Positions 2,131 to 37,828 of a DNA stretch of 64,000 nt are shown piece by piece. The notes beneath the pieces are model-generated. The model saw only the letters and a program-made list of their open reading frames with translations, did no database searches and had not been told where the DNA came from. Within the stretch, counting starts at the first letter, position 1. Each line of letters opens with the position of its first letter. The position numbers and the translations under genes are program-made. Origin of the DNA: an uncultured Acidobacteriota bacterium (GTDB lineage Bacteria; Acidobacteriota; Vicinamibacteria; Vicinamibacterales; 2-12-FULL-66-21); the NCBI GenBank assembly GCA_963697775.1, contig CAVOPH010000003.1, forward strand, positions 2,234-66,233, read 5' to 3'.

Positions 2131-2192
2131 CGTGGAACGTCAGAGTTGCTGTTCCTGCGGTCCCCGTGATCACCGTGATCTCGGCAGACAGC

Positions 2193-21934: not shown

Positions 21935-24900
21935 CGACGACGCCGAGCTCGTTCAAAGACATCGAACGAAGTTCAACTGGAACACTCGAGGGGACGCTGC
22001 CCGCACCAATGTCCAGCCGCTCCCCATTTGCACCGGTAATCGATCCACCGCCATTCCCGACCAGGGGAACCTCATGGACGGCCTCTTCGGGCGCGCGCAT
22101 CTCGACCGTGATCACCCCTTTCTCGAGGGTCAGCGGCTCGAAGACGAGCGACGGGCTCACTGGGAAGCCGGCCGCCATCACCGGAGAAGGACCGCCGGGT
22201 ATCTGATAGAGGACGAGATCCTGCTCAACCGGCTCGAGGTGCATCTCGGTCTGCGAATAGAACTGGTACGCCTCGGTGATACGCGAGTGCACAACCGTTC
22301 CGCTCGAAACCAAGACACCGGCGCCTGCAACCGTGCCGCGCACCACCGACTTCACGCCGGGCTTGTAGAACAGAACCTTGGGCTGCGGAACGACGAGTCC
22401 GGTCGCCTCGAGAGGAATCAGGAGCGGGGTCACCCCGACCACGAGTTCGCCGGGGACCGGTTGCGGCGGAACGGCCGGCGCAGCATCCGCAACGACCCAG
22501 GCGTACTGACCCGTGCCCGGAATGCTTCCTGTGAGCAGTGCCTTGTCGGATGGGAGCGCGTTCGTGGCGAGCGCTCGCCACGCGCGTGACTGTTCGTCCC
22601 ACTGTACGAACGTCACCAGCCTGCCCGCCTTGAGATTCAACGCGTTCGGTGATGCGAGCGACGCCGGCGTCGCGAACGGGATCCCGTGCGGGCCAATGTC
22701 GATGATGTCTATTGGCGTCCATCCAGGAGGCAGCAGTCCCGGCAGCGATTGACGACTGAGCGGCGTCATCGTCACGTCAGCGCTCGACGCGAGAGCCCCG
22801 GCCGGAATCGTCAGCGTGACGTCGGGTCCGCCAAGGGCCACGTTGCCAAGCGAGGGATCCTCAGCGGCCGAGACTTCCCGCTGCCATGCCTCCAGGAACG
22901 TCGCGCGGTCACCTGTGATCGTTGCACCCGACAGTCCGTCAACATGAGCGCTCGCGGCCGCTGCCGTAATTCGTGCATCGACAACTTCGATGGCGGTATC
23001 CGGCTTGATGACCGCCGGTCTGTTGAGCACCGACCAGCCAGCCTTGGCAATCTGAACGATCGCCGTCCCTTCGGTTCCATGAATGACGTAGCGGCCTCGG
23101 GCATCCGAAAGGGCGGACTGCGAATACGGGACGCCACGTGAATCCGTCCCCACGAGCGATGCCGTCGCGCCCTCGACAGGCAGGCCGCTGTTGTCGTCGT
23201 ACACCTCACCCGTCAGGACGCCTTCGCCGGGTGCGATGACCTGAACGTCCCTGGCGTCGATCGCTTCCAATCCTGCGAAGTCGAGCGCCCGCGCTTCGAC
23301 GTGGAGCCGACTGCCCCCCACCGCGCCAGGCGCGACAGCCACCGTCGTCTGGTACGGCGGATCGATGAGCGTCGCGATGCGCTTCCCATCGACAAAAAAG
23401 CGGACAGACGCGACGCCTCCCAAATCCGACACGGTGGCTGAGACGGGCACCGTCGTGCCCGCGTGAGCCGCGGCAGGAGCCGTCAGGCTGAGCGACGGCG
23501 GAATCGTGTCTGGGGTCTGAACGATCTCGATTGATGCGGTCGCGGTTGCCCGGTTGTTCGATCCATCAACGGCCTGAGCCGAGACCGGCAACATTGAACC
23601 CACGACTGCACTCAGCGGAATGACGTAGGTCGCCTCGTAGGGGGGCGCCGTCAGCGATCCGATGGTGACCGAGTTTGCGCCAAGGATCACAGTTGCGACG
23701 CCCACGTTGTCCGTGGCCGTGGCCACGACCTGGAGCACGGTTCCCGGCGCAGCCTGCGCGGGCGCCTTGACGTTGACGATGGGCTTTTCGGTGTCAGGCT
23801 CGGAGACGATCGTGATGGTCGCCGCCGCGGTTCCGACGTTCCCGGCCGCGTCGCGGGCAGAGGCGCCGACCTTCACCGTAGTTCCTGGAGCGACGAGATC
23901 AGGAACATTAATGATTCGCTGGTATGGTGCGCTCGGCAGTTCGATCGGATCGGTGTCGTTGACGTCGAGCGTCACCGACTGAACGCCGATGTTGTCGGTC
24001 GCCTCGGCCGTCATCGTGACGTGCGCACCGGGCAGCGCTTCTTTGGGTCCGCTGAGCGTCACAACCGGTGGCGCACGATCGGGCGCGGCGGCAATCGTCG
24101 CAGTCGTTGCCGCGGCGTCCGATACGGCGCCGTGCGAGTCGGTCACAACCAGGGTGACGGTGAATACGCCGACGCTCTGGTAGACGTGAAACGGTTTGCG
24201 ATCCGTGCTGGTCGTCTGATCGCCGAACGACCACGCGAAGGTGAGTACGTCATTATCGGGGTCGCTCGAGCCGCTGCCGTCGAAGGTCAGGCCAACACCT
24301 ACATCAGCTGACTGCGCGGGACCAGCCTGCGCGACCGGAGAATGATTCACTGCCGCGACAACCGTGATGGTGACGTCCGCGCTGCTCGAGAGGAGCGAAT
24401 CGCTGGCGGTCAGCCGCAGGACGTAGGTGCCGGGTTGAGTGAATGTCGCGGTCGTGCCGGGTGCACCGGCGCTGCTGAACGTCACCGTCCCCGGACCGCT
24501 GAATTTCGTCCACAAGATCGTCAGCGTTCCCCCAGCCGGCAGGCCGTCGTCGGTTGCGGTCCCGGTCAACGCCGCGGTGTTGGGTAGCGTAATCGTCTGC
24601 GGATCGCCGGCGCCGACGACTGGCTTTTGATTGACCGGTGGAGGCGGAGCGGTGACGGTGACCGACGCGGGCGCGGTCGCGCTGCCGCCGTGGCCGTCGG
24701 TGACGGTCAGCGTCGCGGTGAACGGGCCAGCAGTCGAGTACGCGTGCGTCGGCGAAGCGCCCACCCCCGTTGCACCGTCGCCGAAGTTCCACGTGAACGA
24801 CAGCGTGTCGCCCGCATCGGGATCGGAGCCGCTGCCGCTGAAGGAAATCGCTGCACCGGTCAACCCGGAATACGGACCGCCCGCTGATGCCGTCGGGTTG

Positions 24901-25127
24901 TGATTCGGCGAAGGCGGCGCGGTGACAGTGACCGACGCGGTGGCCGTCGCGCTGCCGCCGTGGCCGTCGGTGACGGTCAACGTCGCGGTAAACGGACCAG
25001 CAGTCGAGTACATGTGCGTCGGCGAAGTGCCCACTCCCGTTGCACCATCGCCGAAGTTCCACGCGATACGACAGCGTGTCGCCAGCATCGGGATCGGAGC
25101 CGCTGCCGCTGAAGGAAATCGCGGCAC
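21627..25127 (-). CDS. Giant gene 2 fragment: PKD domains, Ig-like domains, CarboxypepD_reg-like domain
   Basis: ORF 21627..25127. PKD signature WNFGDGATGVG.SPTH.Y...G.FTATLTVTDGHG. Four Ig-like modules with ATDN(I/V)GV or SDLGGV. GEVYDDNSGLPVEGATASLVGTD...SDARGRYVI. Below about 21935 it turns Arg-rich and the sense continues in ORF 17633..21934. Confidence 0.7.
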   Translation of the reverse strand: MPRFPSAAAAPIPMLATRCRIAWNFGDGATGVGTSPTHMYSTAGPFTATLTVTDGHGGSATATASVTVTAPPSPNHNPTASAGGPYSGLTGAAISFSGSGSDPDAGDTLSFTWNFGDGATGVGASPTHAYSTAGPFTATLTVTDGHGGSATAPASVTVTAPPPPVNQKPVVGAGDPQTITLPNTAALTGTATDDGLPAGGTLTILWTKFSGPGTVTFSSAGAPGTTATFTQPGTYVLRLTASDSLLSSSADVTITVVAAVNHSPVAQAGPAQSADVGVGLTFDGSGSSDPDNDVLTFAWSFGDQTTSTDRKPFHVYQSVGVFTVTLVVTDSHGAVSDAAATTATIAAAPDRAPPVVTLSGPKEALPGAHVTMTAEATDNIGVQSVTLDVNDTDPIELPSAPYQRIINVPDLVAPGTTVKVGASARDAAGNVGTAAATITIVSEPDTEKPIVNVKAPAQAAPGTVLQVVATATDNVGVATVILGANSVTIGSLTAPPYEATYVIPLSAVVGSMLPVSAQAVDGSNNRATATASIEIVQTPDTIPPSLSLTAPAAAHAGTTVPVSATVSDLGGVASVRFFVDGKRIATLIDPPYQTTVAVAPGAVGGSRLHVEARALDFAGLEAIDARDVQVIAPGEGVLTGEVYDDNSGLPVEGATASLVGTDSRGVPYSQSALSDARGRYVIHGTEGTAIVQIAKAGWSVLNRPAVIKPDTAIEVVDARITAAAASAHVDGLSGATITGDRATFLEAWQREVSAAEDPSLGNVALGGPDVTLTIPAGALASSADVTMTPLSRQSLPGLLPPGWTPIDIIDIGPHGIPFATPASLASPNALNLKAGRLVTFVQWDEQSRAWRALATNALPSDKALLTGSIPGTGQYAWVVADAAPAVPPQPVPGELVVGVTPLLIPLEATGLVVPQPKVLFYKPGVKSVVRGTVAGAGVLVSSGTVVHSRITEAYQFYSQTEMHLEPVEQDLVLYQIPGGPSPVMAAGFPVSPSLVFEPLTLEKGVITVEMRAPEEAVHEVPLVGNGGGSITGANGERLDIGAGSVPSSVPVELRSMSLNELGVVVAHWFRLRERDVHFICDRTVSTGDVFHSASRSGDRHRSLPLDPAPGARRTDALRADGARRTDERSAGLHSRARRHGCDVRRDPVAWPLRVPSRHDAARLRGR

Positions 25128-25980
25128 CAGTCAACCCGGAATACGGACCTCCCGCTGATGCCGTCGGGTTGTGATTCGGTGGAGGCGGTGCGGTGACTGG
25201 TGACCGACGCGGTCGCCGTCGCGCTGCCGCCGTGACCGTCGGTGACGGTCAGCGTCGCGGTGAACGGACCCGCCGTCGAGTACGCGTGCGTCGGCGAAGT
25301 GCCCACTCCCGTTGCACCATCGCCGAAGTTCCACGCGAACGACAGCGTGTCGCCAGCATCGGGATCGGAGCCGCTGCCGCTGAAGGAAATCGCGGTACTG
25401 GTCAAGCCGGAATACGGACCACCAGCCGATGCCGTCGGGTTGTGATTCGGTGGAGGCGGGGCGGTGACTGTGACCGATGCCGTGGCCGTTGCGCTACCAC
25501 CGTGACCATCGCTCACAGTGAGCGTCGCGGTGAACGGACCCGCCGTCGAGTACGCGTGCGTCGGCGTTGCGCCGACTCCCGTCGCACCATCGCCGAAGTT
25601 CCATGCGAACGACAGCGTGTCGCCCGCATCGGGATCGGAGCCGCTGCCGCTGAAGGAAATCGCGGCGCCGGTCTGGCCGGAATACGGACCGCCGGCAGAT
25701 GCCGTCGGATTGTGATTCGGTGGAGGCGGTGCAGTGATAGTGACCGCTGCGGTCGCCGTCGCGCTGCCGCCGTGGCCATCGCTCACAGTCAGCGTCGCGG
25801 TGAACGGACCGGCCGTCGCGTACGAGTGAGTCGGCGAAGCCCCGACTCCCGTCCCACCATCGCCGAAGTTCCATGCGAACGACAGCGTGTCGCCAGCATC
25901 GGGGTCCGAGCCGCTGCCGCCGAAAGAAATCGCGGCCGCGGTGAAGCCGGAATATGGACCGCCGGCCGATGCCGTCGGGT
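24628..25980. repeat. Tandem 270-bp DNA repeat (5 units, roughly 90 percent alike by eye) encoding the PKD array
   Basis: The unit boundary word TTGTGATTCGG recurs at 24898, 25169, 25440 and 25710, with variants at 24628 and 25980. Spacings are 271, 271, 270 and 270 nt. The two 271-nt units each carry one extra base relative to their neighbours (GCGATACGACAG vs GCGAACGACAG near 25068; GTGACTGGTGACC vs GTGACTGTGACC near 25198). Confidence 0.8.
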
Positions 25981-26677
25981 TGTGATTGGTGGATCCACCG
26001 CCGGACGTGATCGTGAAAGCGCCTGGAAGGATGGCAATCTGCGCGCTGGTCACCTGCACGGTGCGGACGCTCGCCGCCGTGGTCGCGGGTATGGAAATGT
26101 TCGCGAGCAGCGTCGTGTCGGACTGCACGGTGACCTTGTTGACCGTCACCCCTGTTCCAAATGTGACTTGCGTGTTTCCGGCAACGAAGTGTGTGTTCGC
26201 TGAGCCAGTAATGCGGACGTCCTGATTCACGGCGCCCGCAGGCAAGGAAGCGATCCCAGGCAGCGAGATCGCGATCACATCGAGCGACTTGCCGTCGCTG
26301 AAGCTCCCGGTGGTCACATTTCGGACACGAAGCGCCGTGACTCCAACGGGCAATCCAGCCGGAACCTTGACGGTCAGCCGGCGCGAGCCCGCTGTGGCGT
26401 CAACGGTCGCGATAGCGCTCGGAACAGCAGTAAGTGCGGGGCCACTCGCAGGGATGAAGGAGACTTCGTTCTTGGACGCGGTCGGATCGAAGCCGGTGCC
26501 GACGATGTTGATGGTCGCGAGGGTGGAGGCACCGGTTGGCGTGACCGACGTCAGCAGCCCGGACTGCGCGCTCGAGATCGCCCCAACCATCAGGACGAGC
26601 AGCAGTGCGCCCGCGCGGACGCCGGATCGCCTGGAGGTCAACGAAGCGGCGATTGATACGGTCCAGGGCCGGGGCAC
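24977..26677 (-). CDS. Giant gene 2, N-terminal fragment: signal peptide, two IPT/TIG-like domains, PKD repeats
   Basis: ORF 24977..26677 starts at GTG 26677. An alternative TTG at 26641 overlaps the PEP-CTERM gene stop as TTGA. Signal-like SRRSGVRAGALLLVLMVGAISSAQS. INIVGTGFDPTASKNEVSFIP, then three PKD copies. Sensible only down to about 25198. Confidence 0.7.
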   Translation of the reverse strand: MPRPWTVSIAASLTSRRSGVRAGALLLVLMVGAISSAQSGLLTSVTPTGASTLATINIVGTGFDPTASKNEVSFIPASGPALTAVPSAIATVDATAGSRRLTVKVPAGLPVGVTALRVRNVTTGSFSDGKSLDVIAISLPGIASLPAGAVNQDVRITGSANTHFVAGNTQVTFGTGVTVNKVTVQSDTTLLANISIPATTAASVRTVQVTSAQIAILPGAFTITSGGGSTNHNPTASAGGPYSGFTAAAISFGGSGSDPDAGDTLSFAWNFGDGGTGVGASPTHSYATAGPFTATLTVSDGHGGSATATAAVTITAPPPPNHNPTASAGGPYSGQTGAAISFSGSGSDPDAGDTLSFAWNFGDGATGVGATPTHAYSTAGPFTATLTVSDGHGGSATATASVTVTAPPPPNHNPTASAGGPYSGLTSTAISFSGSGSDPDAGDTLSFAWNFGDGATGVGTSPTHAYSTAGPFTATLTVTDGHGGSATATASVTSHRTASTESQPDGISGRSVFRVDWCRDFLQRQRLRSRCWRHAVVSRGTSAMVQREWALRRRTCTRLLVRLPRR

Positions 26678-27259
26678 TGAGGAGCACTCTTGGGTGAACG
26701 AATCCGACGCCGCAGAGCCGCCACGATGACGCCGCTGGCGAGCAGGGCGATAGAACTGGGCTCAGGCACCGACTCGAACTTGGGATCCAGGTAGATGGTC
26801 GCCAGTGAATCGGTCGCAGTGAGGGGACCTGAGAGAAACAAGGAGCCGTAGTCAGCGAAGTTGCCACCGGTGAAGGTAAGCGTCGCGAGAGCGGCAGAAG
26901 CGAAATACGTCCCGACGAGCGCCGTTGGCGACAGCACGGACTCTCCCCCACCGAGAAATCCGTTACCGGAAAAGTCGATGAATTCCAGCGCGGCAGCGCC
27001 CAAATCCACGGTCGCGAAGAATGTCAGGCCACCGTAAAGCGGATCGCTGGTATCGAGATCGTTGGTCAGCGAGAAGTACCTCGAGGCTCTCACAGAAAGG
27101 ATCGATGTCTGAATCGCACTGCTCGACGACGAAATTGAACGTGCCGACAAGGACTGGAGAGGTTGGGTCGATTGCGTCGGCTGACGCCGTCGTGACGCTG
27201 CCGAGTACGAAGACGACGAGGGCGACGAGCGCAAGAGCGGTATGAGACAGGAGTTTCAT
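26638..27259 (-). CDS. PEP-CTERM sorting-domain protein (one frame break near 27085)
   Basis: ATG at 27259 preceded by AAGGTGA. Signal-like MKLLSHTALALVALVVFVLGSVTTASA in the frame of ORF 26963..27475. Sense then continues in ORF 26638..27234 and ends ...KFESVPEPSSIALLASGVIVAALRRRIRSPKS plus about 15 more residues. Confidence 0.7.
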
Positions 27260-27620
27260 GGCATCACCTTGCCCTGATCGGCGAGCGCCGAGCAAGCCGG
27301 CGGCCATCTGGAAGTACCGAAAGTCCCGCTCATTCTCATCGTGACCGCGAAAAGGTTGTCCAACGTCAGACTTTGCGCATCGGCCAAACCGACTATTCAA
27401 ACAGCCGCGCGACTTCGTAAAGCGTTTCGACATAGAGGTAATCGCGCAAGGTTCCGATAACCGCGCACCATGCATTACGGATGAACGATCGCGGATGGAA
27501 GAAGGGGAAAGAGGCGAGTGAAAATTGTTGGGAGGAAGTACCTTGTTGGCTGCTGGCGGCTGGCCGCTCGAACCGGAAGCCCTTCGACTCGCGCGAATCT
27601 CGCGCTCGCTCAGGGTATGG

Positions 27621-27650
27621 CTGGAAACTGGAAACTGGAGACTGGTAACT
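27621..27650. repeat. Heptamer tandem array (CTGGAAA/CTGGAGA/CTGGTAA)
   Basis: CTGGAAACTGGAAACTGGAGACTGGTAACTG followed by ATTTTT, immediately 3' of the CHAT gene stop (27656). No inverted partner seen nearby. Confidence 0.75.
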
Positions 27651-27655
27651 GATTT

Positions 27656-30397
27656 TTAAAACGGCTCTCCGATCAGCACGTAGCCGGCCCAGTAGAACGG
27701 GCGCGCATCCAGGCGGACGTTGCCCAGCGGAGTGCGAACCACCATTGAACCGCTCCGAAGCTTTTGCAGCAGATCGAGCTGAGCGCGTCTGAGAGCCGCT
27801 CGTTTGTCGAGCCCCGCAAGCCAGTGCGTGTAGAACCCTTTCATGATCGCGGCGCTCGGTTGATCGGCAACATCCCAGAGCGTCGCTACGACGGTGGGCG
27901 TGCCGGCATAAAACAACGCTCTCGCCATCCCGGAGATCCCGTCGCCCGACGGCTTGCCCGTGGCGGTTCCGCATGCGCTCAACACCACGATCTCTGACGA
28001 GAGAGAGAGCTCGTACACCTCCCGGACCGTGAGGTGGCCATCCGACTCTGGACGGTCGCCGCTCTCGCCGAGCGCCAGGTAGGAATCGAGCGGCTCGTCA
28101 TCCCGAATCACGGCGTGTGTCGCGAAGTGAATGACGCGCTTGTCGGTCAGTTCCCGGCGCACATCCTTCTCGAGCGCCTGGGTCCTCGCGAGCACGCTGG
28201 TTCGGCCGCGGCCGAATACGTCTCTGATTGCAGCGGCTTCTCCGATCGCGGCAGACAGCGATGGAAGCGGCGCCTGGCCGGGCGGCGTGGAGATTGGTGC
28301 GGGATCAGCCACCACGAGAGAACTGCCCGACGAATTCGATCGGGACTGTCGCGCCAGGCGTTCGGTAAACGCAAAAGCGGACGCGGATGGAGCGTAGGCG
28401 ATCGCGTAACGCTCCACCAGGTAGGTTCCAGCCGGGTCCACAAGCGCCGCGAACGACAGGCGAAACAACGGCCCGTGCGGCAGGATCGTCAGGGCGCTCC
28501 CGTCAGGAGGCAGCCACTTCGCTACGGGCCCCACCAGCAACGTGTACAGGCGGCGGAACGCGGTCGCCTCGGACGAGTCCGGCTTGGGGACAGCAGCCTG
28601 CACCATGCGCTCGAGCGTGGCGCGGCTCACCACGATGCGTGCGCTCCGGACGGGGTGCCCTGGTTGGATCACCCACGCAAAGACTTCTTCGTCGTTGACC
28701 CAGTAGGCGACCACGGTGGTGCGGAGCCGGGCTGCCGTGGTCGCGATCTCGTCGGCCGAAGCGGTCTTCGAAGAGGCGTAACTGCTCAGCGTCAAATCGT
28801 CACGACGGGAAGCTGCGACCGGCCTGTTGAGGCCGCCTCGAGTCTCCAACCCGGATGGCGCCGGGTCGAGCGCCGGAAGCAATGAGGACGACGACGCCGG
28901 CGGCGGCGCATCCGGCTTCGGTGGTGACGCGATCAGCGCTTTGCCCGCCAGCAGATCGAGGAACGCGCGGGCGCGCGCCTGTTCGCTGACGATCAGCGCC
29001 TGCTCCGGCTGACCCCGTTGAATCATCAGCGCCAGCGTCAGGCCGTACAGTGACTGATGGACTTCGCTGAACCCTCGCTTCATGAAGTCCAGCGGCACGA
29101 GCCTGGACCTGATCTCTTCGACGCGTCGCACCGCTTCACGGGCATCATCCAGCGCGGCGTCGATTCGGCCGGCCGCGCGATTGATCGAGGCCCGCTGATG
29201 AAACAGATCGACGAGATAGTCGCGGTTGGCGGATCGAAGGCCGTACTCGATCGATCGATCCGCATGCTGCAGCGCCGTGTCGTACTGCTGCTGCTCCAGA
29301 TAATTCATGGCCAGATTGCCATGGCGATAGGCCAGCAGGTACGGATCCGTTTCGCGCGTGATGACATCTTCGAGCAGCCGGATGGCGCCCGGCACATCGC
29401 CACTGGCCGCGTAGGCAGCCGCCAGATTCCCCTGCTGAAAGTTCACGATCCGCTCGGAACCGGTCTTGCGCGCGAGCGCGAGCGCACGTTCGTATGCCAC
29501 GCGCGACTCGGCCGTTCGGCCGAGCAGTCCCAGCGCGATGGCTTTCGAGTTCAGGCTCTGCACGAGGCCTCGAATATCGCCGATCCGTTCCTGGACCTTC
29601 CCGGCCTGGTCGTAGAATTCGAGGGCCCGTTCGGGTTGTCCATGGACCCGATACATCCGCCCGACACTGACGTAGGCGTCAGCCAGGCTGGCAGGCCTAT
29701 CGGCTTCCTTGAATTTGTCGATCGCCAGATTCAAATCCGCAATGGCATCGTCGAATCGTCCGGCCCCGAATGCGTGGTCGGCCCGCAGATGAAGCGCTCG
29801 TGCTTCCAGGCCGGCAGAAGGGATGCGGCGCGCAAGTAGCAACGCTTCGTCGATCAATCGCGCTTCCTCCGGGTCGCCGCTTGGCAGCGCGTAGCATAAG
29901 TTGATGAGCGTCGATGCCCGATCCGCATCGTCGCCAATCTCCGTGAACACGGCCAGAGACGTCTCGAACTGCCGGCGGGCGCCAGGCAGATCGCCCTTTG
30001 CCATGGCGACAAACCCCAGCACGTCCGCGGCATGGGCTTCCTGACGGCGATCGCCCAGGGTCTGCGCCAAGTCACGCGCGCGAACACCCTCGGCCACCGC
30101 GGTGTCGTAGTCGCTGAGGTGGTACGACGCGAGCGCAGAGCCAACCCGCGCCTGCAGTTCGGTCACGCGATCGGCGCTGGCAATGGCCAGCCGAAGAGCC
30201 TGGTCGAAGCACGGCTTCGCTGGACCATTTTGCTCTAACGTCGCAAGGCGCTGGCCTTCTTTGAGGAGATCCGGAACGGACGAGGAGGAACTACAGCTGG
30301 TCGACGACGGATCAGTCGACTGGGCGGCTGGCGCCGCGACGAGAACGCCCGTCCAGAGCACGAGCGTCAGCGAGCATAGGTGTCGTGACCCTGCCAC
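27656..30397 (-). CDS. Exported TPR-repeat CHAT-domain (caspase-fold) protease
   Basis: ORF 27656..30655. The most plausible start is GTG 30397, giving MAGSRHLCSLTLVLWTGVLVAAPAAQS (signal-like). Long TPR-like helical repeat region. C-terminal CHAT-type block with candidate dyad His in VIHFATHAV (codon 28115-28117) and Cys in VVLSACGTA (codon 27971-27973). No frame break. The start is uncertain and overlaps the 3' end of the anti-sigma ORF. Confidence 0.8.
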   Translation of the reverse strand: MAGSRHLCSLTLVLWTGVLVAAPAAQSTDPSSTSCSSSSSVPDLLKEGQRLATLEQNGPAKPCFDQALRLAIASADRVTELQARVGSALASYHLSDYDTAVAEGVRARDLAQTLGDRRQEAHAADVLGFVAMAKGDLPGARRQFETSLAVFTEIGDDADRASTLINLCYALPSGDPEEARLIDEALLLARRIPSAGLEARALHLRADHAFGAGRFDDAIADLNLAIDKFKEADRPASLADAYVSVGRMYRVHGQPERALEFYDQAGKVQERIGDIRGLVQSLNSKAIALGLLGRTAESRVAYERALALARKTGSERIVNFQQGNLAAAYAASGDVPGAIRLLEDVITRETDPYLLAYRHGNLAMNYLEQQQYDTALQHADRSIEYGLRSANRDYLVDLFHQRASINRAAGRIDAALDDAREAVRRVEEIRSRLVPLDFMKRGFSEVHQSLYGLTLALMIQRGQPEQALIVSEQARARAFLDLLAGKALIASPPKPDAPPPASSSSLLPALDPAPSGLETRGGLNRPVAASRRDDLTLSSYASSKTASADEIATTAARLRTTVVAYWVNDEEVFAWVIQPGHPVRSARIVVSRATLERMVQAAVPKPDSSEATAFRRLYTLLVGPVAKWLPPDGSALTILPHGPLFRLSFAALVDPAGTYLVERYAIAYAPSASAFAFTERLARQSRSNSSGSSLVVADPAPISTPPGQAPLPSLSAAIGEAAAIRDVFGRGRTSVLARTQALEKDVRRELTDKRVIHFATHAVIRDDEPLDSYLALGESGDRPESDGHLTVREVYELSLSSEIVVLSACGTATGKPSGDGISGMARALFYAGTPTVVATLWDVADQPSAAIMKGFYTHWLAGLDKRAALRRAQLDLLQKLRSGSMVVRTPLGNVRLDARPFYWAGYVLIGEPF

Positions 30398-31277
30398 TCG
30401 GTAATCTCCAGCCGATCCGCGGCGCAAGGAGAGTACCCAGGGCCGCACACGCTTGTTCTCGTCGCGACTCACCCGTCCCGCAGATCTCGGTGAGTACGAT
30501 CGCGGCCGCATCGCGGCGGCCAACCCGCTCGAGAGCAACGGCAAGATACCACGAGGCATCAAGGCGCAGCCACGTGTTCGCCGTCCCGTCAGTTCGTGCC
30601 CGTTCCAGCGGGGCCACCGCATCTGCGGCTTGCCCGGCCAGCAGGTACGAGACACCGAGGTAGTAGCTCACAAACGGTTCGTTCGGGTGGCTTGACTGGA
30701 GTGCAGCGAGCTTCTGTATAGCCCCGGGATAGTCATCACGCCGGAACGGCGCGAGCGCGCCGCTGAGCGCTGTTGCATACGGGTCAGCCCCTCGACTCCG
30801 CAAGACGAGCGCGCTCGGCGGCAACTCAACTTCGGGCTTCTCCAGCGTGAGCACGAAAGCGGACCCAGCACGCGGGGATGCTCCGACAGGGACGCCGGGT
30901 GCCGAAGGCATGACGGAATCCTGGTGGTCGAACTGCGCCAGCCAACCTGCACCAACTGCGATCGTGATGACCGCTGCGGCGGCAACGGGCCGCCACCACG
31001 CTCGTGACGTTCGTCCGGCGTTCTTCACCCTGGACTGAATCCGCTTCGACTCCTCGACGGTCGGCTCCGAACACTCGGGCGACGCCTGTGCCTCGGCAAG
31101 CATCCGGCAGACGGCGCAATGCTCCATGTGCGAGAGGATTCGTCCCCGTAGCGGTTCCGGCAGCGTCCCCTCCATCGCGGGCAGGAGCGTCTCGGGCGCC
31201 GGACACGACACCGTCTGAGCGCGCTCGAACGCGTCCCTTTCCGAGGGGTCCAAATCAGCTGGCACGGGCCGCATCAT
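30312..31277 (-). CDS. Anti-sigma factor (zf-HC2 N-terminus, one TM span, TPR-like extracytoplasmic domain)
   Basis: ATG 31277 overlaps the sigma gene stop (ATGA). H-x3-C-x2-C motif LSHMEHCAVCRM at about 31101-31136. Hydrophobic span WWRPVAAAAVITIAVGAGWLAQF. C-terminal helical repeats (YYLGVSYLLAGQAADAVAPLERA...). Confidence 0.75.
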   Translation of the reverse strand: MMRPVPADLDPSERDAFERAQTVSCPAPETLLPAMEGTLPEPLRGRILSHMEHCAVCRMLAEAQASPECSEPTVEESKRIQSRVKNAGRTSRAWWRPVAAAAVITIAVGAGWLAQFDHQDSVMPSAPGVPVGASPRAGSAFVLTLEKPEVELPPSALVLRSRGADPYATALSGALAPFRRDDYPGAIQKLAALQSSHPNEPFVSYYLGVSYLLAGQAADAVAPLERARTDGTANTWLRLDASWYLAVALERVGRRDAAAIVLTEICGTGESRREQACAALGTLLAPRIGWRLPSGRVTTPMLADARALDGRSRRGASRPVD

Positions 31278-31738
31278 GGCTTTTCGCTCAACTCCTTGCG
31301 CAACAGTTGATGGGCGTATTGCAAGTAACCCTTGACCTGGATTTCCGACAATCCGAGGCGCCCTGCGATCGCGGTCCGCTCCAGACCGTGCACGTATCTC
31401 AAGATCAGGCAGGCGCGATGCACAGGCTTCAATGCCGGCGCCGCATCCAGCCACTCCTCGATACCGCTCTCGGACTCGGCCTTCGGCTCGGGATCCAACC
31501 CGGCGCTGTATTTTCGTTCCAGCGCGTTCCTTCGCCAGAAGTCCGTGGCGCGATTCTTGACCACGGTGAACAGCCAGCCGGGCAGGAGCCCCGGATCGAT
31601 CCGATCGAACGTGTTATAGAGCGCAACGAACGCTTCGGCGGTAATCTCCTCGGCGATTTCGCGGCGCCCGACACATTTCACGGCATACCGGAAAACCGAC
31701 GTCAGATGCTCCCGGTAGGCATCGTCGAAATCTGTCAT
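31274..31738 (-). CDS. ECF-type RNA polymerase sigma factor (sigma-70 regions 2 and 4)
   Basis: 154 aa. Region 2-like: FRYAVKCVGRREIAEEITAEAFVALYNTFDRIDPGLLPGWLFTVVKNRATDFWRR. Region 4-like: RACLILRYVHGLERTAIAGRLGLSEIQVKGYLQYAHQLLR. Confidence 0.85.
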   Translation of the reverse strand: MTDFDDAYREHLTSVFRYAVKCVGRREIAEEITAEAFVALYNTFDRIDPGLLPGWLFTVVKNRATDFWRRNALERKYSAGLDPEPKAESESGIEEWLDAAPALKPVHRACLILRYVHGLERTAIAGRLGLSEIQVKGYLQYAHQLLRKELSEKP

Positions 31739-31805
31739 TGAGCACTACGGACGGGGGATTGAGGATGGAAGAATGGCAACGGCAGAAATCCGTGATCGGG
31801 GATCA

Positions 31806-31830
31806 TACGGCGAAACGCCCTAACAGTTCA
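31806..31830 (-). promoter_or_regulatory. Candidate ECF-type promoter (GAAC-N16-CGT) upstream of the sigma factor gene
   Basis: The minus strand reads TGAACTGTTAGGGCGTTTCGCCGTATGATC about 70-90 nt upstream of ATG 31738. GAAC and CGT are separated by 16 nt, and TATGAT could equally be a housekeeping -10. Motif match by eye only. Confidence 0.3.
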
Positions 31831-32526
31831 GCGCGACCGTCCGACCGCCGCGAGCGCGTCGGCTTCGGCCTGGCCGAGCGACTCGGACAGGGCCGCCTGG
31901 CCTCGATCGAGGTGCTCCTGTTCGGTTCCGCCAACCACTACAGGCGGACGGATCGCCAACGCCACGGTGCTGAATGGCTTCGGCACCATCGTCCGGTCCC
32001 AGCTGCTGGTCGTCCAGGAACGACTGGCCTCTGAATGGAGGGGTAACAGCGGATTCCCGGTCGCACCAGCCAACCACACGGCACCCGGCTGTGCGATGCG
32101 GGCCGGGCCGCGTGGTCCGTCCAGCGCCAGCGCCGCCGGATGGCCCTGTTCGACCTCGTGCTTCATCGCAATCAACGCGCGCGCGCCGCCATGCGAGGTT
32201 GAACCTGCGACCGTACGGTTGCCAAGGCGCTCGATGATCCTCGCGATCCACTGTCCATCGAAATTCTCGCTCGCCATGACGACGACGCCGCGATTGCGGA
32301 ACACCCAGATCGCCGGCAGAATCCGGCCATGCCAAACGGCGAAAATGGGGACCCGACCGGATCGGATGATGTCGTCGAAATGATGGATGCCTTCGACCTT
32401 CCAGGTGATCGTGCGGCAGAGACCGCTGATGAGGGGAGAAGCAGTGGCCGCGATCAGGCGCGTCTGCAGGCGTTGCGAAGAGGTCAGCTGCCGGGTATCT
32501 TGGACCACTCGGTCATCTTTTATCAC
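31828..32526 (-). CDS. DUF374-domain protein (lysophospholipid acyltransferase-like)
   Basis: 232 aa, GTG start. IFAVWHGRILPAIWVFRNRGVVVMASENFDGQWIARIIERLGNRTVAGSTSHGGARAL...ALDGPRGPA matches my recollection of the DUF374 family. Confidence 0.7.
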   Translation of the reverse strand: MIKDDRVVQDTRQLTSSQRLQTRLIAATASPLISGLCRTITWKVEGIHHFDDIIRSGRVPIFAVWHGRILPAIWVFRNRGVVVMASENFDGQWIARIIERLGNRTVAGSTSHGGARALIAMKHEVEQGHPAALALDGPRGPARIAQPGAVWLAGATGNPLLPLHSEASRSWTTSSWDRTMVPKPFSTVALAIRPPVVVGGTEQEHLDRGQAALSESLGQAEADALAAVGRSR

Positions 32527-32553
32527 TGCTCGCGGGGCCCCATTTCTCTTGTT

Positions 32554-32578
32554 GCGCCTGGGGCCCCGCCCCAGGCGC
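32554..32578. other. GC-rich perfect hairpin GCGCCTGGGGC-CCC-GCCCCAGGCGC
   Basis: 11-bp perfect stem in the ETF-QO / DUF374 spacer. Same GGGGC-N3-4-GCCCC core as the hairpins at 54913-54932 and inside each 131-bp repeat unit. No U-run on the transcribed strand. Confidence 0.7.
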
Positions 32579-32659
32579 AGCCGACTCGCGCGTTCGCGCT
32601 CGCCGGGGCTGAAGGCTCTCGCTCGGTCTCGCTTCTAACTTGCTAACTCTTTTAACGTT

Positions 32660-34327
32660 CTACATCCCCTCATACTGCGGTCCCCCACCCCCTTCAGGGG
32701 GGACCCAATCAATCAACTGATACGGATCCATGATGTCGCACGTCTTGCAATGGACACAGTTGGAGGCGTTGATCTGGAGCCGCTTCGTGCCATCGCCCGC
32801 ATCGACCATTTCGTAGACATTCGCAGGACAGAATCGCGTGCACGGGTTGCCGTATTCCGTACGACACCGAGTCCGGCAGACCTCGGCATCGTGCACGATC
32901 AGATGCGAGGGCTGATCTTCCGGATGACGGGTTCCCGAGTAATGAACGTTTGTCAGCTTGTCGAACGTGAGCTGACGATCGATCCTGACCGGTCGAATCG
33001 GTGAATCGGGATCCGGCCGGCTCGACGGATAGTACTCGTCCAGCTTCGCGACCCGCTCGTAGCCCGCATGCGCCGGCATCGGGTCGCGATACCACCAGCC
33101 GCCGGTCACGAGCGACAGACCGGAATACGCAAGACCCGCCATCAGGCCGTAGCTGAAGCTCTGATGGATGTTTCGAACCGGGAACAGCTCGCGGCGGACG
33201 TCGCTCCGATCGATCGCATCGGCATAGTTCTTCAGTCGCGCCGCAGTCGTGTCGCCGGCACGCACGGCATCGAACGCACTCTCGGCGGCGAGCATGCCGG
33301 TACGCATCGCGAGGTGGATGCCCTTGAGACGCAGTGAATTCAGGAACCCGCCAGCATCCCCGGCGATGAGAACACCATCGGCATAGACACGCGGGATCGT
33401 GTGCCAACCGCCTTCGGGCAGCGCCTTTGCGCCATAACGAACGAGCTGCCCCTTGTCGAGGAGCGACGCGACAAACGGGTGCTGCTTGAAATGCTGAAAG
33501 GCGATATGGGGATCGAACATCGGATCGCGGTAGTCGAGCCCGCTGACGAAGCCGATCGACGCCAGGCCGTCGGGCATCACGTATATGAAGGCGCCGCCGA
33601 ACTCCTCCTGGCGCAGCGGATATCCCATGGTGTGCATCACCGTGCCGGCGGGGACGCGGTCCTTTGGAATCTCCCAGAGCTCCTTGATCCCGATTGCATA
33701 AAGTTGCGGCAAACGCCCCGCGTCGAGCGCGAGGCGACGCACCACCGACTTGGTCAGATTGCCGCGCACGCCGTCGGTGAGGATCGTCACCTTCGCGTGA
33801 ATATCGACGCCGGGCTCGAACGTCGATTTGCGCTCGCCGTGCTTGCCGATGCCGCGATCGCCGGTCCGAACGCCGGCAACACGATCGCCGTCGTAGAGAA
33901 CCTCGACGCCCGGGAAACCCGTGAAGATATCCACCCCTTCGCTCTCGACGAGGCCACCCAGCCATTTCACAAAGCGACTGAGCGAGATGATGTAGTTACC
34001 GTGATTTCTCAGCGGCGGCGGAATGATCGGAAACTTCAGCTTCCCCGTGCGGGTGAAGTAAAACACCTGGTCGTGATGGACTTCGGATGCGAGCGGAGCG
34101 CCCTTGGCCTTGAAGTCGGGGATGAGCGCGGCGAGGGCTGACGGATCGAGAACGGCGCCCGACAGCATGTGCGCGCCCACCTCGCGCGCCTTCTCGAGGA
34201 CGGCGATCGTGAGCGGCTCGCCCCCCTTCTCCTTCTGCAGTTGGGTCAGCCTGAGGGCAGCCGACATTCCGGCGGGACCGCCGCCTACGATCAGAACGTC
34301 GACTTCAAGAGTCTCGCGTGTTGACAA
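32660..34327 (-). CDS. Electron-transfer flavoprotein:ubiquinone oxidoreductase (ETF-QO)
   Basis: 555 aa. FAD motif VLIVGGGPAGMSAALRL. C-terminal 4Fe-4S ferredoxin-like CPANVYE...NCVHCKTCDI. Adjacent to etfA and etfB. Confidence 0.9.
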   Translation of the reverse strand: MSTRETLEVDVLIVGGGPAGMSAALRLTQLQKEKGGEPLTIAVLEKAREVGAHMLSGAVLDPSALAALIPDFKAKGAPLASEVHHDQVFYFTRTGKLKFPIIPPPLRNHGNYIISLSRFVKWLGGLVESEGVDIFTGFPGVEVLYDGDRVAGVRTGDRGIGKHGERKSTFEPGVDIHAKVTILTDGVRGNLTKSVVRRLALDAGRLPQLYAIGIKELWEIPKDRVPAGTVMHTMGYPLRQEEFGGAFIYVMPDGLASIGFVSGLDYRDPMFDPHIAFQHFKQHPFVASLLDKGQLVRYGAKALPEGGWHTIPRVYADGVLIAGDAGGFLNSLRLKGIHLAMRTGMLAAESAFDAVRAGDTTAARLKNYADAIDRSDVRRELFPVRNIHQSFSYGLMAGLAYSGLSLVTGGWWYRDPMPAHAGYERVAKLDEYYPSSRPDPDSPIRPVRIDRQLTFDKLTNVHYSGTRHPEDQPSHLIVHDAEVCRTRCRTEYGNPCTRFCPANVYEMVDAGDGTKRLQINASNCVHCKTCDIMDPYQLIDWVPPEGGGGPQYEGM

Positions 34328-34338
34328 TGTGCTCGAAT

Positions 34339-34434
34339 CAGTTACCAGTTTCCAGTTTCCAGTTACCAGTAGGCTCTCTGCACCGTTTTCTCAACTGGAA
34401 ACTGGGCACTGAACTGAAACTGAAACTGGAAACT
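34339..34434. repeat. Inverted pair of heptamer arrays (CCAGTTT/CCAGTTA vs AACTGGA/AACTGAA)
   Basis: Left arm 34339-34370: CAGTTACCAGTTTCCAGTTTCCAGTTACCAGT. Right arm 34393-34434: CAACTGGAAACTGGGCACTGAACTGAAACTGAAACTGGAAACT. Fills the etfA / ETF-QO spacer. Confidence 0.85.
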
Positions 34435-35392
34435 ATTTTTTCAACTCCGCTATCAGTGCAGGAACCACTTCGAACAGATCTCCGGCGATGCCGTAGTCGG
34501 CGATCTCGAAAATCGGCGCTTCGGGGTCCTTGTTGATTGCGACGATCGTTCGCGATCCCTTCATCCCGACCAGGTGCTGAATCGCCCCGGAGATACCGAG
34601 CGCCACGTAAAGCTTCGGCGCGACGGTCTGCCCAGAACTGCCGATCTGACGGTCCATGGGCAACCATCCGGCGTCGCAGATGGGCCGCGACGCGGCGAGC
34701 TCTGCGCCGAGCGCCTTGGCTAGCTCCTCGGCAATCTTGACGTGCTCCTGTCCCTTGATTCCGCGGCCGACCGAGACAATCCGCTCGGCCTGCGACAGAT
34801 CGACGGCTTGCTTCGCCTCCTGAAAGGGTGCCTCGGGCTTCTGACGAATCGCTGCCGCATCGACGGCAACGCTCACCTTGCGAATCGGAGCCGGAGAGGC
34901 GCCGCGCTTCGCGGCGTCGGCGCGAAAGGCGCCGATCTGAATCGTCACCAGATGGGGTGAAGGGCCGAGCGCTTCCACGTCGGCATTCAGTTTTCCCTGA
35001 AACACTGGACGGACGTAAACAGTGCTGTCGCCGGACTTCCTGATCGCGGTCACGTCCGTGACCAGCGACCGGCCGATGCGGGTCGCAAGGGCGGGCGCGA
35101 AATCACGGGTCTGGTACGTGTGCGAAAAGAAGACGGACGAAGGCTTCTCCTGGTCGATGAAAGACGTCAAGGCAAGAACGTAGCCGTCTGCGGTGTACTC
35201 CGCGAGCGCGGTAGCTTCGAGAACAATGACCTCTGCTACCGCCGCCGCAGCGATTTCTGTCGCCGCAGCGTCTGCACCCGACCCGAGCAGCGCAATCTTG
35301 ACGGGCTCCTCACTCTGCTGAGCGGCCGCGACGGCTTCCCACGTCGCGCGATTCAATTTCCCACCACGCTGTTCGCCAACGACAACAGGCAT
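34433..35392 (-). CDS. etfA: Electron transfer flavoprotein alpha subunit
   Basis: 319 aa. C-terminal FAD-binding signature ...IVSVGRGIKGQEH...ASRPICDAGWLPMDRQIGSSGQTVAPKLYVALGISGAIQHLVGM. Confidence 0.9.
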   Translation of the reverse strand: MPVVVGEQRGGKLNRATWEAVAAAQQSEEPVKIALLGSGADAAATEIAAAAVAEVIVLEATALAEYTADGYVLALTSFIDQEKPSSVFFSHTYQTRDFAPALATRIGRSLVTDVTAIRKSGDSTVYVRPVFQGKLNADVEALGPSPHLVTIQIGAFRADAAKRGASPAPIRKVSVAVDAAAIRQKPEAPFQEAKQAVDLSQAERIVSVGRGIKGQEHVKIAEELAKALGAELAASRPICDAGWLPMDRQIGSSGQTVAPKLYVALGISGAIQHLVGMKGSRTIVAINKDPEAPIFEIADYGIAGDLFEVVPALIAELKK

Positions 35393-35426
35393 TGTTAGAT
35401 CACCCTCGCTTCGTCTCGCAGCCGTT

Positions 35427-36155: not shown

Positions 36156-36158
36156 TGT

Positions 36159-36313
36159 AGCTTCCAGCTGCCAGCTACCAGCTTCCAGCATGAGGAGCTT
36201 CCAGCTACCAGCTTGAAATCAAGTTCGACCGCGCGTGAAAAGCGCCACTCAAAGCACCCCGGTCCTCGCAAACTTGAACTGAGCGGGAAGCTGGAAGCAG
36301 GAAGCTGGAAGCT
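36159..36313. repeat. Inverted heptamer arrays (CCAGCTN / NAGCTGG)
   Basis: Left arm 36159-36215: AGCTTCCAGCTGCCAGCTACCAGCTTCCAGC...AGCTTCCAGCTACCAGCTTG. Right arm 36286-36313: GGGAAGCTGGAAGCAGGAAGCTGGAAGCT. Spacer between the fabF stop and the etfB start. Confidence 0.85.
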
Positions 36314-37553: not shown

Positions 37554-37588
37554 ACCGCCTCCCCTGGGAGGCAACCCGAAGGGCTGCC

Positions 37589-37828
37589 CTACTTCTTCTT
37601 GCTATGAGACTCGATGTATTCGACCGCTTCCTTCACCCGCGTGATCTTCTCGGCATCCTCGTCGGGAATCTCAATCCCGAATTCCTCTTCGAACGCCATG
37701 ACCAGCTCCACGGTATCGAGCGAGTCCGCGCCGAGGTCGTCCACAAACGACGCATCTGGAGTCACTTCTTCTTCATCGACTCCCAGCTGCTCCACGATGA
37801 TGCCCTTCACTTTGTCTGCAACCGCCAT
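37589..37828 (-). CDS. acpP: Acyl carrier protein
   Basis: 79 aa with the [19 protein letters not shown] phosphopantetheine-attachment motif. Confidence 0.95.

Follow-up and report, generated by a model that had tools for sequence, protein, structure and literature searches.

The locus analysed here raises the question of whether an exported CHAT-domain protein, encoded beside an ECF sigma factor and its membrane anti-sigma factor, belongs to their signalling unit and could be the protease that releases the sigma factor. A preliminary description of the window (the whole 64,000-nucleotide stretch of DNA that was analysed) had raised both this possibility and that of a maturase for giant secreted proteins encoded downstream. 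A cassette of sigma factor, anti-sigma factor and exported CHAT protein is widespread, yet unstudied, in soil Acidobacteriota, and appears to switch on neighbouring surface-protein genes. The features of the locus are collected in Table 1. The lack of a strand switch along it was confirmed but is not distinctive of the locus, since every long ORF of the 64 kb whose third-position GC gives a coding-like profile lies on the minus strand.

Table 1. Features of the cassette and its neighbouring genes, in positions of the window.
Feature	Positions	Strand	Description
ECF sigma factor	31274-31738	-	154 aa, group IV (assigned from sequence)
Anti-sigma factor	30312-31277	-	321 aa, CHCC zinc, single TM helix, 3-TPR outer domain (predicted)
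Exported TPR-CHAT protein (predicted)	27656-30397	-	913 aa, GTG-30397 start
PEP-CTERM gene, small secreted product	26638-27259	-	frameshifted by one extra G
Giant secreted PKD / Big_7 / Big_5 repeat protein	17633-26677	-	~3,000 aa, three frames
P1, ECF-type promoter (predicted)	31746-31775	-	-35 TTCTTCC, 17-nt spacer, -10 CGTA
P2, second motif copy	27476-27505	-	CCTTCTTCC-N17-CGTA, CHAT/PEP-CTERM gap
Leader, P2 to PEP-CTERM start codon	27260-27475	-	~215 nt, conserved in DNA alignment

First, both regulators correspond to what had been read from the DNA. The sigma factor, described as a sigma-70 r2/r4 protein, matches Sigma70_r2 (residues 8-72, E 1.6e-12) and r4_2 (residues 95-140, E 3.3e-6) in Pfam and passes the TIGR02937 sigma70-ECF model with 61.4 bits (cut-off 42.9). 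With regions 2 and 4 only, a small size and a superfamily HMM pass, it is assigned from its sequence to the group IV sigma factors; none of the group-specific NCBIfam models attained its cut-off. Its orthologues are 46-96% identical, with conservation beginning at residue 1. The anti-sigma factor, for which an H-x3-C-x2-C motif, one TM span and a helical-repeat outer domain had been noted, is predicted to combine a cytoplasmic N-terminal CHCC zinc domain (C25...H50-x3-C54-x2-C57), a single hydrophobic span forming the TM helix (residues ~98-116, preceded by N-terminal helices in the AF2 model) and a small, helical, periplasmic 3-TPR domain (residues 166-284) with invariant C266 and C277. A disordered linker (~117-140) lies beyond the TM helix, the segment ALVLR[GS] is conserved with R160 invariant, and the tail is also disordered. 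The ligands C25, H50, C54 and C57 are invariant across the 14 closest homologues, and the H-x3-C-x2-C motif with a fourth ligand and an adjacent sigma gene is that of class I zinc-binding anti-sigma factors (ZAS). The Pfam model zf-HC2 (PF13490) gives the window protein 16.3 bits (E 0.011), under the cut-off of 22.2, and matches 23 of 27 family members at E<=1 (best E 3.5e-7); the family itself, collected at E<=1e-30 and clustered at 50% identity, counts 513 cluster representatives.

Second, the TPR-CHAT protein is predicted to be Sec-exported and to carry an intact caspase-type His/Cys dyad. Its GTG start is backed by GGAG 9 nt upstream, and orthologue N-termini align from this codon onward. 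The predicted signal peptide (residues 1 to ~26) is followed by a TPR superhelix (~41-490), a disordered loop (491-536) and the CHAT caspase-fold domain (~545-913); the CHAT match to PF12770 reaches 233 bits (cut-off 24; E 6.5e-69), the Pfam TPR matches are many, and the AF2 model has a pLDDT of 87.7. The predicted catalytic dyad H761/C809 aligns with H862/C907 of DdvA (numbering taken from PMC11506125) and with the His/Cys pair of Csx29, and the HMM pass with both residues in place assigns the domain to the clan CD caspase-fold CHAT domains. Homology to DdvA is seen in sequence and fold alike: among PDB entries, the CHAT-domain profile matches DdvA best (8rot_B, E 8e-9, His and Cys aligned), Csx29 being the next closest solved structure in sequence, and the top Foldseek match of the AF2 model is again DdvA (8rot_A, E 1.2e-16), above separase and Csx29, the latter ranking fourth behind two DdvA entries and one separase entry. 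A signal-peptide-like N-terminus was found in 39 of 46 called CHAT homologues; because of these N-termini and the conserved Cys pairs in both outer domains (Cys35/Cys63 in the TPR-CHAT protein), a periplasmic location is likely. The dyad is invariant in 133 sequences (46 homologues and 87 distinct locus ORFs), which shows the predicted proteolysis by the CHAT protein to be under selection. Thus, the signal-like segment, the TPR repeats and the intact His/Cys pair of the preliminary description were all recovered, and the export signal and dyad on which its proposal depended are both in place.

Third, the three genes travel together. Among the 45 CHAT relatives with at least 3.4 kb of upstream DNA, both the sigma and the anti-sigma genes lie upstream in 42, so that the synteny in relatives that the proposal called for exists. 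The trio, found in loci L001-L006, L009 and L010, is retained down to 31-34% anti-sigma identity and ~40% CHAT identity, with gene order and strand fixed and coding regions that overlap or abut. The sigma TGA overlaps the anti-sigma ATG as ATGA (gccATGAtg), exactly as first noted, and the CHAT gene shares 86 nt with the 3' end of the anti-sigma gene, both in the window and in L001, the junction in the other loci being an overlap or a gap of a few to 53 nt; this packing suggests co-translation. The anti-sigma factor and the TPR-CHAT protein are encoded by two genes divided by a stop codon, and the same split was found in all relatives examined. CHAT-TPR proteins are abundant in soil bacteria, and a common CHAT paralogue might therefore chance to follow an ECF pair; however, the synteny counts, at such low identities and with order, strand and packing preserved, effectively refute this explanation, which is left with a negligible probability. 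Given the synteny and the promoter statistics, the sigma/anti-sigma/CHAT arrangement is far beyond chance, and the sequence comparisons support the CHAT protein as part of the sigma/anti-sigma signalling unit. In two loci, L007 and L008, the sigma factor, the anti-sigma factor and the cargo promoter are kept with no CHAT gene adjacent, and CHAT is therefore not indispensable in cis.

The output of this unit is suggested by a shared promoter motif. Of 42 distinct sigma-upstream regions, 41 have TCTTCC-N17-CGTA directly ahead of the start codon and, because autoregulation is usual among ECF sigma factors, we infer that the cassette sigma factor reads such promoters, whose -35 element is without the common AAC core. 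The window contains two exact matches (0.18 expected), one before the sigma gene and one before the PEP-CTERM and giant genes; with a promoter model (PWM) trained on the sigma-upstream sites, P1 scores 26.8 and P2 25.2, and every other site of the window scores 16.6 or less. The CGTA of P1 ends 7 nt ahead of the sigma ATG, and the sigma mRNA is therefore probably leaderless. P2 is kept at the same position in L001, L009, L011 and L012, and the leader behind it is conserved relative to L009 and L001; a search of this leader against Rfam gave zero matches. A further 46 sites occur across 800 kb of loci, compared with 0-2 in shuffled sequence: 19 just after CHAT, 17 divergent from sigma, and 2 after the anti-sigma gene in CHAT-less loci. 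The motif connects the regulatory genes with the downstream genes. DdvA, the closest characterised relative, controls a CBASS/CRISPR island (PMC11506125), and the cassette could likewise be a phage-sensing switch whose true targets are defence genes elsewhere. We consider this highly improbable: a defence-model search of the three cassette proteins returned only generic TPR matches, the motif copies, without exception in the window and with few exceptions in the loci, stand beside the cassette before genes for secreted or surface proteins, and, according to the DdvA authors, only a subset of DdvA-like pairs is found near defence genes.

The downstream genes themselves differ from their first description in several respects. 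The small protein, taken to be of roughly 200 aa and to end in RRR, does carry a PEP-CTERM motif (26.0 against 20.7 in Pfam; 24.9 against 16 for TIGR02595), but its gene has one extra G at 27079/27080 when aligned with the DNA of two relatives (L009 and L001), its signal peptide (ATG 27259) is out of frame with the PEP-CTERM end, and the repaired product of 206 aa runs 21 residues beyond the RRR cluster; the L001 orthologue is intact at 218 aa. What had been counted as two giant secreted genes directly downstream begins with a single gene in three frames, as the window ORFs 24977-26677, 21627-25127 and 17633-21934 form one ORF in L001 (3,035 aa) and in L012, the frame analysis placing the switches near 25,020-25,190 and 21,915-21,934; Pfam matches of the giant protein are the three repeat types listed in Table 1. 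The HExxH peptidase ascribed to a giant gene comes down to a bare HEWAH in ORF 16804-17907, which gave no peptidase HMM match. If the frameshifts in the cargo genes are real, the output arm is decaying in the window. Across the loci the cargo varies: PEP-CTERM genes occur in ~6 of 56 and same-strand giant genes in ~11 of 56, while many carry instead unrelated secreted proteins (~580 aa) or divergently transcribed genes. These counts bear on the idea that the CHAT protein matures what the regulon secretes (the PEP-CTERM and giant Ig-repeat proteins) and sits in the sigma operon merely for co-induction. CHAT and secreted cargo are co-located in the window, L001, L003, L009, L012 and L017, and CHAT is predicted to be exported to the compartment of the cargo; however, CHAT is constant while the cargo changes, the trio occurs without a giant gene in L004 and L005, and the PEP-CTERM and giant gene pair occurs without CHAT in L007 and L008. 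The variable cargo therefore argues that CHAT serves the regulators, and a maturase is disfavoured as improbable.

Herein, we propose, tentatively and with a confidence that stops a little short of even, that the locus is a three-gene ECF cassette with a local regulon, in which the CHAT protein acts as a trans site-1 protease of the anti-sigma factor (a "split DdvA"). At rest, the sigma factor would be held at the membrane by the anti-sigma factor. An extracytoplasmic cue, probably proteinaceous, would be sensed through the TPR superhelix and would activate the CHAT protease, which would clip the anti-sigma factor in the stretch that separates the TM helix from the 3-TPR domain, with either the ALVLR160 segment, which is conserved, or the disordered linker as candidate cut site. 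This cut would be followed by intramembrane (RseP-type) and cytoplasmic proteolysis, and the freed sigma factor would act at TCTTCC-N17-CGTA promoters. From P1 it would drive its own leaderless operon, a positive feedback that would also supply more anti-sigma factor and CHAT protein, and from P2 the PEP-CTERM protein and the giant Ig-repeat surface protein; in other words, the cassette would control cell-surface proteins instead of phage defence genes. Of the first proposal that CHAT releases the sigma factor, membership in the signalling unit thus stands on the synteny, the export signals and the dyad, and we infer the cleavage of the anti-sigma factor itself. The CHAT protein is probably either a trans site-1 protease or a sensor for the anti-sigma factor. 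In the second case, the TPR-CHAT protein would be an RseB-like, non-cutting sensor or co-regulator acting on the 3-TPR domain, or would direct its protease activity at an incoming protein, foreign or self, with the anti-sigma factor sensing the product or the conformational change, and another enzyme would be the site-1 protease. The synteny, export signals and TPR content fit this equally well, both outer domains are TPR protein-binding modules, the DdvA authors likewise propose that a protein signal docks on TPR-CHAT (PMC11506125), and L007 and L008 work with no CHAT gene next to them. Nevertheless, the selection on proteolysis itself, and the fact that the sigma-linked TPR-CHAT protein Csx29 has a sigma inhibitor as its known substrate (PMC10028731), speak against this alternative, and we regard it as unlikely, although to be taken seriously. 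The wider form of the protease model, for a large, unstudied family of ECF cassettes with at least 500 anti-sigma clusters (50% identity) in which a free periplasmic CHAT protein is a signal-activated trans site-1 protease acting on a zinc anti-sigma factor and the freed sigma factor transcribes the leaderless operon and adhesin or PEP-CTERM neighbours, is possible but somewhat doubtful. If true, it would provide the first clan CD protease shown to initiate regulated intramembrane proteolysis and, for the DdvA mechanism, which is unproven, a model whose parts can be separated genetically.

Single-pass anti-sigma factors whose site-1 cut licenses a site-2 protease are known from RseA/DegS/RseP (E. 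coli sigmaE) and RsiW/PrsW/RasP (B. subtilis sigmaW), and for SigW, as predicted for the cassette, the ECF promoter is autoregulated and has a -10 element of the CGTA type. In those systems the site-1 cut is made by the serine protease DegS or the membrane metalloprotease PrsW, whereas it would be made by a putative clan CD cysteine protease here, and neither DegS nor PrsW has a fixed place as third gene in the sigma operon. The view that no such module had been characterised is out of date, given DdvS-DdvA (PMC11506125), Csx29/Csx30 (PMC10028731) and the mention of ECF54 in a review (PMC8999054). ECF54 resembles the cassette in having a CHAT-domain gene beside the ECF sigma gene, together with subtilase and carboxypeptidase genes, and in a proposed proteolytic regulation; it is described as actinobacterial and without an anti-sigma factor (PMC8999054), whereas the zinc anti-sigma factor is always present here. 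In craspase (Cas7-11/Csx29/Csx30/CASP-sigma), cleavage of the sigma inhibitor Csx30 by the TPR-CHAT protein Csx29 has been demonstrated (PMC10028731), so that a TPR-CHAT protein controls an ECF-like sigma factor by cutting its inhibitor, as would be the case here, and the sigma factor then acts on promoters in its own locus. Unlike the window cassette, craspase works in the cytoplasm and is switched on by an RNA-guided CRISPR complex, and Csx30 does not belong to the zinc anti-sigma membrane proteins (PMC10028731); the neighbouring genes, in the window as in the loci, include no Cas7-11 (gRAMP), Csx30, Csx31 or cas genes. The closest counterpart is DdvS-DdvA of M. xanthus, an ECF/anti-sigma pair whose periplasmic TPR-CHAT is proposed as site-1 protease (PDB 8ROT/8RW5; PMC11506125, PMC6061681). 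DdvA holds the zinc anti-sigma domain, the TM helix and the periplasmic TPR-CHAT in a single protein, and removal of its TPR-CHAT permits RseP cleavage; the action of CHAT on the anti-sigma part is a hypothesis there, dyad mutants have no phenotype in unstimulated cells, and a three-helix active-site motif is missing (PMC11506125). Shared with the cassette are the ECF sigma factor, the CHCC zinc domain with a single TM helix, the periplasmic TPR-CHAT with its conserved dyad, an autoregulated operon with further sigma-dependent promoters nearby (predicted here) and a CHAT protein proposed to act ahead of RseP. The systems differ in promoter (TCTTCC-N17-CGTA here, GTAA-N16-CGT for DdvS), in regulon (predicted surface and secreted proteins here, CBASS/CRISPR there) and in hosts (Acidobacteriota and other soil lineages here, Myxococcota and one Comamonas for fused DdvA-like proteins). 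They also differ in architecture, as two polypeptides are encoded here and the TPR-CHAT has its own signal peptide. Since DdvA fuses an anti-sigma factor to TPR-CHAT, the separate proteins of the window can be linked by a Rosetta-stone argument. The window cassette is thus a two-protein version of DdvA, although for the anti-sigma half by analogy, because its small 3-TPR domain resembles generic 3-TPR modules and not the DdvA scaffold.

Several features of this locus have been revealed in the present analysis. First, the four genes named in the preliminary description, encoding an ECF sigma factor, a zinc anti-sigma factor, an exported TPR-CHAT protein and a PEP-CTERM protein, were all found, and all lie on the minus strand. 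The trio of sigma, anti-sigma and TPR-CHAT is syntenic in relatives. Among seven neighbourhoods inspected, six carry these genes in this order, down to 31-34% anti-sigma identity, and one of the six has a second CHAT gene. In one organism (related loci L007 and L008), a small PEP-CTERM-type gene and a giant gene come immediately after sigma and anti-sigma, without CHAT; the cargo promoter is retained at this CHAT-less pair (L007:765-12089 and L008), together with a gene of 190 aa and one for a giant He_PIG/Big_5 protein. In the reverse test, an alignment of the CHAT domain led to 80 metagenome loci at 39-79% identity, of 226 matches, which were scored with HMMs built from the family; when only CHAT genes with at least 3.4 kb of upstream DNA were counted, 42 of 45 had a same-strand sigma and anti-sigma gene upstream. 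The downstream genes vary, with a PEP-CTERM gene in about 6 of 56 loci, a same-strand giant gene in about 11 of 56 and assorted genes in the rest. An anti-sigma profile matched 513 representatives of 50%-identity clusters (E<=1e-30), over nearly the full length among the 150 matches listed. Since the upstream regulators are constant, the downstream genes variable and the anti-sigma clusters many, the conserved unit is the trio, and it is common.

Main features of the cassette and its surroundings (window numbering)
Feature	Position	Strand	Description
Sigma	31274-31738	minus	154 aa; Sigma70_r2 and r4_2; passes the ECF superfamily model
Anti-sigma	30312-31277	minus	321 aa; C25...H50-x3-C54-x2-C57
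TPR-CHAT	27656-30397	minus	
P1	31746-31772		promoter motif before sigma; weight matrix score 26.8
P2	27476-27502		second motif copy, between CHAT and PEP-CTERM gene; weight matrix score 25.2
Giant PKD/Big_7/Big_5 gene	17633-26677	minus	three frames in the window; one 3,035-aa ORF in related locus L001

The nearest genome record is an uncultured Acidobacteriota MAG (sigma 96% and anti-sigma 87% identical), and a distant copy was observed in a Bryobacteraceae MAG. The anti-sigma homologues came from metagenomes and MAGs only; the genome collection search returned only two loci, and with the search pattern applied the family is almost missing from species-representative genomes. Tandem cassettes at L006:1882-8496 and L089:3-2592, in the order CHAT, sigma, anti-sigma (then CHAT), suggest that the module was duplicated locally; the 190-aa sigma of L006 has diverged too far to be matched by the family HMM. 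Upstream of the cassette, genes for DUF374, ETF-ubiquinone oxidoreductase, and ETF alpha and beta were found in both the window (31828-37600) and L001 (341-7109), and L001 additionally has FabF, ACP and FabG. The upstream gene order is common to the window, L001, L008 and L009, and thus the cassette occupies a fixed chromosomal place in the lineage of the window.

Second, domains and topology signals were identified in the products of the trio. The sigma stop codon overlaps the anti-sigma start codon (ATGA). The four-ligand spacing of the anti-sigma factor is of the CHCC zinc anti-sigma type, comparable with C6/H28/C32/C35 of DdvA, the Myxococcus xanthus anti-sigma factor fused to a TPR-CHAT; the window protein falls slightly under the Pfam zf-HC2 cut-off, and 23 of 27 family members match zf-HC2. 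One hydrophobic span was observed (residues about 98-116), and the AF2 model (mean pLDDT 72.5) contains N-terminal helices, the TM helix, a disordered linker, a 3-TPR domain at 166-284, which is its confident part, and a disordered tail. Both C266 and C277 are invariant in the outer domain. The DdvA scaffold was not recovered by a fold search with the anti-sigma factor, and therefore no homology to DdvA is claimed for this half of the system.

For the CHAT gene, the best start is GTG-30397 (913 aa), with GGAG 9 nt 5' of it and orthologue N-termini aligning from this position on. The alternative start at GTG-30655 (999 aa) was rejected, as its first 86 codons are the overlap with the anti-sigma gene and relatives match there through shared DNA only. 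The product contains a CHAT domain (E 6.5e-69) and numerous TPRs, and three residues, H757, H761 and C809, do not vary among 46 database homologues and 87 distinct locus ORFs. A signal-peptide-like start was found in 39 of the 46 called homologues, and several of the others (e.g. P0055) resemble truncated gene calls. Just past the signal peptide, the Cys pair C35/C63 is kept in about 60% of homologues; this pair and C266/C277 of the anti-sigma factor are consistent with an oxidising compartment.

The AF2 model of the CHAT protein is confident (pLDDT 87.7, pTM 0.85) and comprises a TPR superhelix (about 41-490) and a caspase-like alpha/beta domain, with a disordered loop (491-536) between them. 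The loop (window 28790-28927) has 46 residues rich in Pro, Ser and Ala, is modelled with very low confidence and is poorly conserved; it could act as a flexible hinge or, like a segment in separase, in self-cleavage or inhibition. A PDB fold search with this model returned DdvA (8ROT) as the best match (E 1.2e-16), followed by separase and Csx29, the TPR-CHAT of craspase. DdvA was also the best match of a CHAT-domain profile against PDB (E 8e-9), and the catalytic His and Cys of the two coincide in the alignment. DdvA, Csx29 and separase were reached by sequence only with the profile restricted to this domain; phmmer with the single protein sequence returned TPR proteins only from PDB, and the full-length profile was dominated by TPR matches.

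Third, the regulators and the downstream genes share a promoter motif. When the 160 nt 5' of the sigma start were aligned, 41 of 42 distinct loci showed TCTTCC and CGTA separated by 17 nt (rarely 16 nt). In the window (31739-31775) and in the sigma-upstream regions of 40 loci, only 3-7 nt separate the end of CGTA from the start codon, no Shine-Dalgarno sequence was found, and the sigma protein is conserved from its first residue on; these sequence features suggest a probably leaderless mRNA for the sigma operon throughout the family. P1 is probably a typical autoregulated ECF promoter with CGTA as its -10 element. Two exact copies of the motif are present in the window versus 0.18 expected, and the next best site by weight matrix scores 16.6. 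A weight matrix scan of 800 kb of loci at a score of at least 19 gave 91 sites, versus 0-2 in shuffles: 45 before sigma, 19 just past the CHAT stop, 17 divergent from sigma, 8 elsewhere nearby and 2 just past the anti-sigma gene in CHAT-less loci. These shared sites tie the regulators to the downstream surface genes by a dedicated promoter, beyond mere position. The sigma-70 promoter and terminator scan returned nothing on the minus strand. The non-sigma sites typically precede genes whose products begin with signal peptides, which argues against a DdvA-like defence role for the cassette; such a role is unlikely, PADLOC also having given generic TPR matches only.

The divergent motif copies lie 50-250 nt upstream of sigma on the minus strand in 17 loci (L005, L017, L026, L035, L061, L075-L078 and others) and precede secreted-protein genes, among them a PEP-CTERM-like one in L078 and run-off ORFs of >1,600 aa in L017 and L076. 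In L028, L041, L048 and L060, a minus-strand gene after the motif, a few kb from the cassette, encodes a secreted protein of ~575-590 aa ending ...AAKAV(A/E)KAL..KK, which is probably a further regulon member. Between P2 and the PEP-CTERM start lies a leader of ~215 nt (27260-27475) with blocks conserved in L009 and L001, and an ATG 5 nt past the CGTA of P2 begins an ORF of 24 codons, a length also found in L009; Rfam gave no match in window 26000-32500, which includes this leader.

Fourth, the downstream region differs from its preliminary description. The PEP-CTERM motif is present, above both curated cut-offs, but the protein does not end at RRR (21 residues follow). Its signal peptide (ATG 27259) and C-terminus are in different frames, with an extra G at 27079/27080 (GAGG in the window versus GAG in L009 and L001) that is either a homopolymer-type sequencing error or the mark of a real pseudogene; frame repair gives a product of 206 aa. 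The two giant genes described earlier were replaced by one frameshifted gene, as ORFs 24977-26677, 21627-25127 and 17633-21934 form a single ~3,000-aa protein in L001 and L012; the frame switches lie near 25,020-25,190 and 21,915-21,934. Frame breaks were also observed in L009, a close MAG relative, e.g. inside its anti-sigma gene (L009:10776-10840), and thus assembly error is as likely as gene decay. For the supposed HExxH peptidase, only the motif itself was seen, as HEWAH at residue 291 of ORF 16804-17907, and no HMM supports it; this ORF overlaps the giant gene end and gave no peptidase family match, only weak SdrD_B and CarboxypepD_reg matches. The lack of a strand switch tells little, since the minus strand carries every long coding-like ORF of the 64 kb. 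Further downstream (30-16080), minus-strand ORFs with CarboxypepD_reg, Big_5 and Big_7 in overlapping frames, and a Gly-rich ORF (30-1403; 21% Gly), probably represent at least one more large surface protein, which may be frame-broken as well; no copy of the promoter motif precedes the ORFs of this region. That the CHAT protein serves as a maturase of the secreted cargo seems improbable, because the downstream cargo is variable and loci exist with cargo but without CHAT.

On the observed basis of domain content, topology signals, synteny, the invariant dyad, relatedness to DdvA and the shared promoter motif, we propose a mechanism for the cassette. The anti-sigma factor would sequester sigma. 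The exported TPR-CHAT would sense an outside cue and cut the anti-sigma factor between the TM helix and the 3-TPR domain, RseP-type and cytoplasmic proteases would complete its breakdown, and sigma would then drive P1 and P2. This mechanism as a whole is put forward tentatively, at somewhat less than an even chance. Many clan CD enzymes prefer Arg or Lys, and the conserved ALVLR[GS] segment, in which R160 is invariant, is on this ground a speculative candidate cut site, as is the disordered linker. The main rival, in which TPR-CHAT would be a non-cleaving sensor or co-regulator, is regarded as less likely.

To our knowledge, the route of anti-sigma inactivation is known for few of the many ECF groups. 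For DdvA, the only studied TPR-CHAT case, cutting of the anti-sigma factor by CHAT could not be settled, since a single protein is at once protease and substrate and no signal is known. In the present cassette the two are separate, and cleavage is therefore directly testable with purified parts and catalytic mutants, which gives easier experimental access to the question whether anti-sigma proteolysis begins with a cut by a periplasmic CHAT protease. The sharply defined TCTTCC-N17-CGTA promoter with its putatively leaderless sigma offers a ready reporter and regulon predictor. The family is abundant in soil metagenomes, and its predicted output includes giant Ig-repeat adhesins, PEP-CTERM proteins and other secreted proteins; taken together, this abundance and predicted output suggest that the cassette may be a common Acidobacteriota route for surface remodelling on outside cues.

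Each part of the cassette is of a kind known already, and for the cassette logic a related system has been studied. In M. xanthus, the zinc anti-sigma factor DdvA spans the membrane and has a TPR-CHAT as its periplasmic part; without this part it becomes exposed to RseP, and its authors proposed, but could not demonstrate, a site-1 step in which CHAT would cut the linker in trans (PMC11506125). In craspase, the TPR-CHAT Csx29 cleaves Csx30, an inhibitor of an ECF-like sigma (PMC10028731), and CHAT genes have been noted near ECF54 sigmas, which are without an anti-sigma factor (PMC8999054). The main text of the ECF classification paper does not mention CHAT, and the literature search found no paper on a separately encoded exported TPR-CHAT as the fixed third gene of an ECF/zinc anti-sigma operon. 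The split architecture, the abundance in soil lineages, the surface-protein regulon and the leaderless autoregulated promoter, as predicted here, appear to be undescribed. DdvA-like fusions were reported from Myxococcota and one Comamonas only (PMC11506125), and whereas protease and substrate are one protein in DdvA, they are two co-encoded proteins in the present family.
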